Shown one piece after another: positions 36,250-37,080 of a stretch of 42,657 nt of DNA. The translations under genes were made by a program, and so were the position numbers. The stretch is from a virus. Taxonomy: Duplodnaviria > Heunggongvirae > Uroviricota > Caudoviricetes. Every line of letters starts with the position of its first letter. The stretch's first letter is position 1. The notes beneath the pieces are model-generated. The model saw only the letters and a program-made list of their open reading frames with translations, ran no database searches and had not been told where the DNA came from. Where the stretch lies: positions 1-42,657 of the IMG/VR virus record IMGVR_UViG_2925914267_000007; one strand, given 5' to 3'.

Positions 36250-36252
36250 ACA

Positions 36253-36323
36253 ATATGTACCTCCGATATACATATTACATGATTGAGATGAACCTTCAAG
36301 ATACTTGTACCCTATCGGTACAA
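36253..36323. promoter_or_regulatory. OR-like operator region: two 17-bp palindromes with divergent promoters
   Basis: TGTACCtccgaTATACA (36256-36272) and TGTACCctatcGGTACA (36306-36322); leftward TTGAAG-N16-TAATAT; rightward TTGTAC-N17-TTTAAT ending 6 nt before the repressor ATG. Confidence 0.6.
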
Positions 36324-36339
36324 AGGTTTTAATTTCGTT

Positions 36340-37014
36340 ATGAAAACAGTCCATGACATCCGGCGGTCTAACGCCAGAAAACTGAGAGATGGTGTTGGCG
36401 GGAATTCTTCCTTTGCCACCATGATTGATCGCGAGCCAACCCAGACCAGCAGGTTTATGGGAGATGGTGCTACTAAAAATATCGGTGACAGCATGGCACG
36501 GCACATCGAAAAATGTTTCGACCTGCCTGTCGGATGGCTTGATCAAGAACACCAGACAACAAACATCACAAAAAAACCTGATGTTTCAATTACTAACAAA
36601 CAAATAACGTTAGTCCCTGTCATATCATGGGTACAGGCCGGAGCATGGAAAGAAGTTGGCTATTCTGAGGTTGATTTGAGCACAGCAGAAACTTATCCCT
36701 GCCCTGTACCCTGTGGCGAAATGACTTATATCTTGCGGGTGATTGGTGATTCAATGATTGATGAGTACCGCCCGGGAGACATGATTTTTGTAGATCCTGA
36801 AGTCCCTGCCTGCCACGGTGACGACGTTATTGCATTGATGCACGATACAGGCGAAACCACCTTTAAGCGGTTGATAGAAGATGGAACACAGCGTTACCTC
36901 AAAGCATTAAACCCAAACTGGCCTGAACCTTACATTAAGATCAACGGTAATTGCTCTATAATTGGTACAGTAATTTTCTCAGGAAAACCAAGAAGATACA
37001 AAATAAAGGCCTAA
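36340..37014 (+). CDS. CI-type repressor (HTH plus LexA-like S24 autopeptidase domain)
   Basis: 224 aa; N-terminal HTH; C-terminal VIGDSMIDEY...GDMIFVDPE...KRL. Confidence 0.8.
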   Translation: MKTVHDIRRSNARKLRDGVGGNSSFATMIDREPTQTSRFMGDGATKNIGDSMARHIEKCFDLPVGWLDQEHQTTNITKKPDVSITNKQITLVPVISWVQAGAWKEVGYSEVDLSTAETYPCPVPCGEMTYILRVIGDSMIDEYRPGDMIFVDPEVPACHGDDVIALMHDTGETTFKRLIEDGTQRYLKALNPNWPEPYIKINGNCSIIGTVIFSGKPRRYKIKA

Positions 37015-37025
37015 TCAATATTTAT

Positions 37026-37049
37026 AACCTGCTTCGGCAGGTTTTTTTA
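37026..37049 (+). terminator. intrinsic terminator after the repressor gene
   Basis: CCTGC-ttcg-GCAGG followed by TTTTTTT. Confidence 0.65.
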
Positions 37050-37052
37050 TAC

Positions 37053-37080
37053 TTGACAATGTACCCTTGAGATACATAAT
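37053..37080 (+). promoter_or_regulatory. PL-like promoter with a third operator copy
   Basis: TTGACA (37053-37058) overlapping TGTACCcttgaGATACA (37060-37076); ATACATAATGTAT palindrome. Confidence 0.5.

Follow-up and report, generated by a model that had tools for sequence, protein, structure and literature searches.

The window analyzed here is the whole of virus record IMGVR_UViG_2925914267_000007 (Caudoviricetes; 42,657 nucleotides), and the region around its positions 36250-37080 is very likely a lambdoid immunity switch of the type carried by the Escherichia coli K-12 cryptic prophage e14 and by Shigella phage SfV. A cro-like gene on the minus strand and a cI repressor gene on the plus strand diverge from a 90-bp gap, the repressor has an S24-type autocleavage domain with an Ala-Gly site and a Ser/Lys dyad, and repeated dyads at a right operator (OR) and a left operator (OL) overlap the cro promoter (PR), the repressor maintenance promoter (PRM), and the early-left promoter (PL). 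The e14/SfV type is indicated by near-identity to the e14 repressor YmfK and to the DNA of phages cdtI and SfV, together with a match of a neighboring gene product to the YmfL equivalog family. We read the dyads as five putative operators of 17 bp with the consensus TGTACC-N5-GGTACA, arranged as a tripartite OR and a bipartite OL.

An earlier reading of the sequence alone had described three palindromes of the form TGTACC-N5-NNTACA, and these hold up well. Exact matches to TGTACC-N7-TACA occur in the window only at 36256-36272, 36306-36322, and 37060-37076, while the chance expectation is 0.00 matches (100 dinucleotide-preserving shuffles). As that reading had stated, the first two lie in the gap between cro and cI and the third lies downstream of the cI terminator; its placement over the PL -35 hexamer has to be corrected, as the site lies within the PL spacer, between -35 and -10, where it abuts the -35 hexamer and overlaps the first two bases of the -10. 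The count of three was right as far as it went, but five sites are positionally conserved and two weak ones had been missed. When up to three mismatches to TGTACC-N5-GGTACA are allowed, the window contains 19 matches against 12.5 expected, so that single weak matches cannot be trusted on the evidence of the window. Two of these weak matches adjoin strong sites, and the resulting set is as follows.

36256-36272, OR1: TGTACCTCCGATATACA, an exact match; it overlaps the predicted PR start as well as the final base of the PR -10 hexamer, and the Shine-Dalgarno sequence of cro (CCTCC on the plus strand) lies within it

36289-36305, OR2 (weak): TGAACCTTCAAGATACT, 3 mismatches; it contains the PR -35 hexamer

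36306-36322, OR3: TGTACCCTATCGGTACA, a perfect palindrome that matches on both strands; it covers the -35 hexamer and spacer of the repressor promoter

37060-37076, OL1: TGTACCCTTGAGATACA, an exact match inside the PL spacer

37080-37096, OL2 (weak): TGTATCTAAAAGAAACA, 3 mismatches; it lies over the end of the PL -10 hexamer and the predicted start

The case for these sites comes from comparison with related immunity regions. The comparative set holds 18 non-redundant sequences, including 17 relatives from other genera, with CI proteins 73-100% identical. A scan of one genome per species contributed relatives from more than 12 genera, among them Pseudocitrobacter, Klebsiella, Leclercia, Atlantibacter, Phytobacter, Enterobacter, Pantoea, Trabulsiella, Kluyvera, Limnobaculum, Rahnella, and Edwardsiella, whose repressors are 73-88% identical to that of the window. 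In the 18 sequences the dyads stand at fixed offsets of -84, -51, -34, +721, and +741 from the repressor ATG. At least 10 of the 12 half-site positions in each of OR1, OR3, and OL1 are 94-100% conserved, and the central five bases are essentially free (33-72% conserved). More specifically, 10 of 12 half-site positions are invariant in OR1 (positions 12 and 13 vary), as is TGTACCTCC; OR3 has no mismatch in 16 of the 18 sequences while its spacer varies freely; and 11 of 12 half-site positions are invariant in OL1, where position 13 is G in 12 sequences and A in 6 and the spacer also varies. OR2 is kept at -51/-52 in every sequence as a conserved weak variant, TGAACC..(G)GTACT, with 2-4 mismatches to the consensus; its left half TGAACC and its final T are invariant, and so are its deviations, A at position 3 and T at position 17. 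OL2 keeps its left half TGTACC in 17 of the 18 but has a degenerate right half, and in six relatives the site departs from the consensus at 4 or 5 positions. Invariant arms with drifting centers, common to the five sites, are the signature of recognition by a protein and the opposite of what an RNA hairpin leaves behind. With this, the motif search in related immunity regions bears out the suggestion that the palindromes act as operators. Center-to-center distances are 20 bp for OL1-OL2 and 33 bp for OR1-OR2 (about two and three helical turns), which would be compatible with pairwise cooperativity within each pair, while OR2 and OR3 are 17 bp apart and out of phase.

The operators overlap three promoters, and a terminator follows cI.

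36272-36299, minus strand: predicted PR, with -35 TTGAAG (36299..36294), a 16-nt spacer, and -10 TAATAT (36277..36272)

36305-36340, plus strand: PRM-like maintenance promoter, with -35 TTGTAC (36305-36310), a 17-nt spacer, and -10 TTTAAT (36328-36333)

37026-37049, plus strand: intrinsic terminator of cI, found by the terminator scan as a 7-bp stem followed by a T-run and conserved in relatives

37053-37080, plus strand: PL-like early-left promoter, TTGACA-16-CATAAT, matching the consensus at 11 of 12 positions

The predicted start sites of PR and PL, placed from the sequence, lie at about 36264-36267 (minus strand) and about 37087. PR itself was read from the sequence and falls below the threshold of the promoter scan; its geometry is kept in 18/18, and the placement of PRM and PL with respect to the operators is likewise common to all 18. 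The PR -35 hexamer lies inside OR2, and the last T of the PR -10 is the first base of OR1. The cro Shine-Dalgarno sequence GGAGG, inside OR1, is likewise invariant in all 18. Because OR1, at the predicted PR start, contains this element, the cro transcript is predicted to start at or just before it and to have a leader of only about 15-18 nt. At PL, TTGACA and TACATAATGTAC are invariant among 19 unique sequences.

The repressor promoter supports the second claim of the sequence-only reading, namely that the repressor mRNA lacks a leader. As it had noted, and as in lambda PRM, 6 nt separate the -10 hexamer TTTAAT from the ATG at 36340. In 17 of the 18 sequences the distance from the end of an NNTAAT-like hexamer to the ATG is 6 nt, and in one it is 7 nt, while the six intervening bases differ freely. 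The -35 hexamer matches the consensus at three of six positions. No usable Shine-Dalgarno sequence for cI was found in the 18 sequences, where 4-5-nt matches sit at non-functional spacings of 0, 3, 13, and 14 nt. In the differential RNA sequencing (dRNA-seq) study of E. coli K-12 by Romero et al. (2014), e14 ymfK has a Class I start at its first base, with a leader length of 0 (PMC4681348, Table S3), and it is among only five leaderless mRNAs listed in K-12 (PMC4681348). The window is identical to e14 from the PRM -10 through the ATG, so the mapped start can be transferred to it, which places the PRM start at the A of the ATG (36340). A leaderless repressor mRNA is thus supported by the mapping in e14, rather than in this prophage, and by the conserved layout of a -10 hexamer with no Shine-Dalgarno sequence.

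The three genes of the stretch 35454-37100 agree with this assignment.

35454..36017, minus strand: gene for a CII-like regulator of the YmfL family, 187 amino acids (Pfam Phage_CP76, E 8.5e-15; NCBIfam YmfL equivalog, 169 bits, cutoff 90)

36049..36249, minus strand: cro-like open reading frame (ORF), 66 amino acids, homologue of e14 ymfT/croE

36340..37014, plus strand: cI repressor gene, 224 amino acids, YmfK/CohE type (Peptidase_S24, E 1.5e-26)

The cro-like product has weak, below-cutoff Pfam matches to YdaS_toxin and HTH_3, and RefSeq labels the 100%-identical region "ymfT: YdaS family helix-turn-helix protein". The repressor combines an autocleaving C-terminal domain like that of lambda CI with a divergent N-terminal DNA-binding domain. 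Its C-terminal domain is 35% identical (E 2e-9) to lambda CI, where the identity of the lambda sequence compared is supported by matches in the PDB, and its Ala100-Gly101, Ser138, and Lys176 align with Ala111-Gly112, Ser149, and Lys192 of lambda CI. For the first 90 residues Pfam gave no match at any E up to 10, and the N-terminal domain finds weak matches in the PDB to 5D50 (SPC32H repressor, E 7e-4) and 7NKV (TP901-1 CI, E 0.05). The segments DREPTQxSR and KNIG..ARHxEKCF..P.GWLD are kept across the relatives while the remainder of the N-terminal domain drifts, which fits an unchanged DNA specificity.

The region is already known, and it is nothing new in kind. Positions 35900-37800 are 97-99% identical in nucleotide sequence, over the aligned parts, to phages cdtI, SfV, SfIV, Ayreon, 2H10, and Stx2c phages, with SfV and SfIV covering 79% of the query. 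The 69-bp "putative operator region" of the SfV RefSeq record corresponds to 36255-36323 of the window, which is the span of OR1-OR3. An 861-bp region is present at an identity of at least 90% in 1323 of 5426 complete E. coli genomes, about a quarter, where it is annotated ymfK and ymfT; the region in the window is therefore the immunity region of e14. The sequence-only reading had recognized an immunity region with Cro-like and CI-like genes, and this can now be named as the e14/SfV type. The records of SfV-group phages already annotate cI, cro, the putative operator region, and the cI terminator (SfV), and the terminator and PL promoter (Ayreon). No annotation of the OL sites, the leaderless start, or the individual operators was found in those records. 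SfV differs from the window in the PL leader, where it carries an insertion (orf33 and a terminator) and a 68-nt element that we call R2.

The e14 YmfK protein is identical to the repressor of the window at 223 of 224 residues, and gene order and the positions of OR1, OR2, OR3, OL1, and OL2 are the same. In the 100 bp upstream of the ATG, e14 differs by seven substitutions: OR1 has two (one in its spacer, the other at half-site position 13), the spacer of OR3 has another two, and the remaining three fall outside the sites. As in SfV, R2 follows PL directly in e14, whereas the window lacks it. The e14 prophage is truncated, whereas the rest of the window is that of an SfV-like prophage whose morphogenesis genes are intact.

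The likeness to lambda is one of architecture. Both have divergent cI and cro genes, a tripartite OR of 17-bp dyads, an OL after cI that controls PL, homologous C-terminal domains in CI, and a leaderless cI mRNA with the PRM -10 hexamer 6 nt before the ATG. The layout established for lambda is TAGATT-TAACGT-ATG (Walz et al. 1976, cited in PMC4681348). The centers of OR3, OR2, and OR1 lie at -26, -43, and -76 from the cI start, and those in lambda at -19, -42, and -66 from the PRM start; the middle OR site is thus in nearly the same position (about -42/-43) in both. The operator sequences themselves are unrelated, however, and the OR spacings are 33 and 17 bp here but 24 and 23 bp in lambda. 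OR3 lies over the -35 and spacer here but over the spacer and -10 in lambda, and OL has two sites instead of three. In addition, the N-terminal domain of the repressor has no detectable homology to that of lambda CI, the cro Shine-Dalgarno sequence is inside OR1 here, and the N gene is not present.

HK022 is a lambdoid phage that likewise lacks N. Its operators, as read in the sequence, share the TGTAC/GTACA half-site, and a TGAAC variant of it lies within the PL spacer.

HK022 immunity-region piece, 780-900 (minus strand) and 1945-1965 (plus strand): operator-like dyads read in the sequence

The gap between the TGTAC and GTACA pentamers is 5 bp in HK022 (15 bp overall) and 7 bp here, and the N-terminal domains of the repressors are not obviously related. 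The likeness of the operators is a resemblance only.

If the analogy with lambda holds, the repressor would bind its sites as a dimer. Occupancy of OR1 would cover the PR start and the cro ribosome-binding site, and occupancy of OL1 and OL2 would cover the spacer and start of PL, so that repressor at these sites would block PR and PL and keep lytic transcription off in the lysogen. Repressor at the weak OR2, centered at the position from which lambda CI activates, could help RNA polymerase at the weak PRM. OR3, over the -35 and spacer of PRM, would let CI repress its own gene and Cro shut the promoter off. Cleavage at Ala100-Gly101, triggered by RecA once the SOS response has activated it, would release PR and PL and induce the prophage. 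It is in keeping with this scheme that e14 YmfK has been listed as an "SOS-sensitive repressor" (PMC8249747).

Several points weigh against the assignment of a lambda-like switch with five operators. Judged by the window alone, OR2 and OL2 are no better than chance; all their support comes from conservation, which the promoter hexamers that overlap them confound in part, and six relatives lack OL2. OR2 directly adjoins OR3, at 17 bp from center to center against 23 bp in lambda, so that joint occupancy of the two and activation from OR2 are conjectural. The palindrome closest to the consensus is OR3 and not OR1, and OR3 lies over the promoter of the repressor gene itself; if a match to the consensus predicts affinity, this is not the lambda order, and the affinity hierarchy is the main uncertainty of the scheme. 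No electrophoretic mobility shift assay (EMSA), footprint, or systematic evolution of ligands by exponential enrichment (SELEX) study of a YmfK-type repressor was found in the accessible literature, nor were published YmfK binding sites for K-12 e14, and we infer site occupancy, affinity order, and cooperativity alike.

In one alternative the operators are real but their logic is not that of lambda: OR3 would be the strongest site and would serve simple negative autoregulation, while OR2 would be non-functional and conserved through the -35 hexamers of PR and PRM. The near-perfect conservation of OR3 beside an OR2 with 2-4 mismatches speaks for it, as do the lack of a spacer between the two sites and the position of OR2, which contains the PR -35 and whose last base completes the TTG of the PRM -35. 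However, the TGAACC half of OR2 is invariant in 18/18 even though neither hexamer includes it and its place is in the PR spacer, and the center of OR2 is at -43 from the mapped start, the position of lambda OR2. Moreover, a -35 with three of six consensus positions is what would be expected of an activator-dependent promoter, and PRM is active in the K-12 lysogen, as the published dRNA-seq start indicates (PMC4681348). We therefore regard this alternative as rather unlikely and retain the lambda-like arrangement.

It is also conceivable that the palindromes do not act as operators but form hairpins in RNA or DNA, for instance as attenuators or terminators, in which case OR3 and the adjoining GGTTTTAAT would end transcription that enters cI from upstream. 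The terminator scan did list 36305-36323 (7 pairs with a weak T-run), and a possible distal operator proposed at 37495-37537 by the sequence-only reading turned out to be a terminator-like hairpin, which is considered below. Yet the five sites share one sequence, and their arms are invariant rather than covarying, with drift confined to the central 5 bp. What looks like a T-run behind OR3 is the conserved -10 hexamer of the promoter whose leaderless start has been mapped. At 37497-37537, where there is a genuine RNA hairpin, the pattern is reversed, with arms changed and pairing kept, and hairpins in place of operators are accordingly a very improbable reading. Least credible of all is a mis-assigned cI start, with translation from an internal Met (codons 28, 40, and 52 offer one) and a normal leader on an mRNA that is not functionally leaderless, as the ORF offers no start earlier than 36340, every relative retains ATGAA(A/G) despite variation in the 6 nt before it, and the start mapped in e14 coincides with the ATG. 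Conservation also extends over residues 1-27 (MKT..IRR.NAR.LRD), whose alignment with 5D50, the SPC32H repressor, begins at residue 1.

The operators of the immunity switch are thus best limited to five, and the distal element belongs to a different class.

37497-37544, plus strand: terminator-like hairpin with a U-tract (fold of 37485-37560, -29.2 kcal/mol, z -3.84)

37534-37649, plus strand: R1, a three-way-junction RNA of 116 nt (fold -46.4 kcal/mol, z -5.5; covariance model 119 bits)

As a fourth operator, 37495-37537 was rejected: it is an inverted repeat in which the order of the half-sites is opposite, and it gives no match at up to three mismatches. The GGTACC motifs that had drawn attention to it are the arms of a 13-bp hairpin at 37497-37537, GGCGGUACCAGUU...GGCUGGUACCGCU, followed by CUUUUU. 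Among 54 distinct relatives, most have a stable hairpin with a U-tract at the equivalent place but with unrelated arms (GGCGGCAUC.., GGCGGCGCCAG.., CUGGCGG..). Since the arm sequences have changed and the pairing has been kept, 37497-37537 is a structured RNA element rather than a binding site of the repressor. With a GC-rich hairpin, a U-tract, and pairing maintained through sequence change, 37497-37544 has the features of an intrinsic terminator and is read here as a terminator-like RNA hairpin. The simple terminator scan overlooked it because its loop exceeds 8 nt.

R1 directly follows this hairpin in the early-left leader. It consists of a closing stem of about 20 bp, an almost invariant inner hairpin, and a variable third hairpin. 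Its covariance model found 84 loci, all on the same strand, of which 54 are unique; in these unique copies 93% of pairs are canonical and compensatory changes occur at 12 of 39 pairs. The sample was drawn from viral contigs picked by an exact 21-mer and is biased towards close relatives of the core, and a degenerate IUPAC scan of viral contigs for R1 gave no matches. The lengths of the copies differ by non-multiples of three. The first gene after R1 varies (orf32-type, RdgC-like, YfdR, or Xis), and R1 stands behind an e14/SfV immunity type in 23 of the 54 unique copies and behind other types, or none within 1.6 kb, in 31. In K-12, the e14 copy (107 bits; positions 1590-1705, minus strand, of the e14 piece; NC_000913.3, 1201089-1201204, minus strand) lies inside the annotated gene ymfH (b1142), just upstream of xisE. 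Given that the lengths vary by non-multiples of three, it can be argued that the part of ymfH that holds R1 is non-coding.

R2 is a 68-nt box right after PL, AACAGCGAACAGGCAGGACGCCCACGAAGTAGCCGCC..GGATGATTCGC, with a covarying hairpin, and is present in SfV, e14, and many other phages. It occupies 2694-2761 of the SfV piece examined and 2613-2681 (minus strand) of the e14 piece (NC_000913.3, 1202112-1202180, minus strand), and it also occurs in ST64B, SfII, ZF40, Yersinia and Pantoea phages, and even T5-like Providencia phages. The R2 covariance model has no match in the window; the window, cdtI, and Ayreon have a different leader of about 400 nt where others have R2. In the window, these roughly 400 nt between PL and the hairpin (37090-37494) hold no convincing ORF, and cdtI and Ayreon annotate small hypothetical ORFs in the equivalent stretch on conflicting strands. 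The stretch appears to be mosaic, as its similarity to the leaders of relatives is only patchy. Phage Flotzy matches only parts of the leader elements, with the matches placed at different coordinates and on the opposite strand. A search against Rfam 15, at the gathering threshold for the whole window and at E up to 5 for 35900-37750, found no relevant match for the leader, R1 included; its only matches, ALIL, C4, and isrK, are located elsewhere in the window.

Because these phages lack N, control of read-through by an RNA such as R1 or R2 is a reasonable hypothesis; SfV-type phages have been reported to be without N (PMC3851460). An antiterminator like the put elements of HK022 was considered and set aside: within the limited sensitivity of the models, neither R1 nor R2 has a match in the HK022 immunity region that holds putL and putR, and the sole match elsewhere in HK022 is a chance-level one of R2 (6.7 bits, E 5.5). 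By eye, likeness to put comes down to short identities, for example CATGCGTCG. Tentatively, and with the odds against it, the hairpin and R1 together (37497-37649) could be an undescribed cis-acting RNA module that controls the early-left operon in N-less phages. Candidate roles for R1 are RNA-based antitermination and a processing switch, by RNase III or otherwise.

Other features of the window lie apart from the switch. The Rfam C4 antisense RNA matches at 34908-34995 (minus strand, 67 bits) and the Hfq-binding RNA isrK at 35020-35096 (minus strand, 60 bits), both inside a long ORF (34308..35309) whose product matches the antirepressor-like Pfam families Ash and Rha. The start of this ORF is probably over-extended, as the Ash match coincides with the RNA genes. 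The C4/isrK and Ash/Rha locus would be a second immunity (antirepressor) module in the style of P1 and Gifsy. At 30574-30690 (minus strand), the ALIL pseudoknot, a frameshift signal of IS3-family transposases, matches with 116 bits, and an insertion sequence sits within the prophage at this locus.

For the field, the switch itself adds little, as the repressor, the Cro protein, and the gap between their genes are those of e14 and SfV, found in roughly one in four complete E. coli genomes. What the comparison contributes is an operator map backed by conservation, which gives five sites, a consensus, and the placement of the sites with respect to PR, PRM, and PL. It is transferable to the annotation of e14 in K-12 and shows where footprinting could be aimed. 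Of greater use as a lead are the two conserved structured RNAs in the PL leaders of this group of phages, one of which is annotated as protein in K-12.

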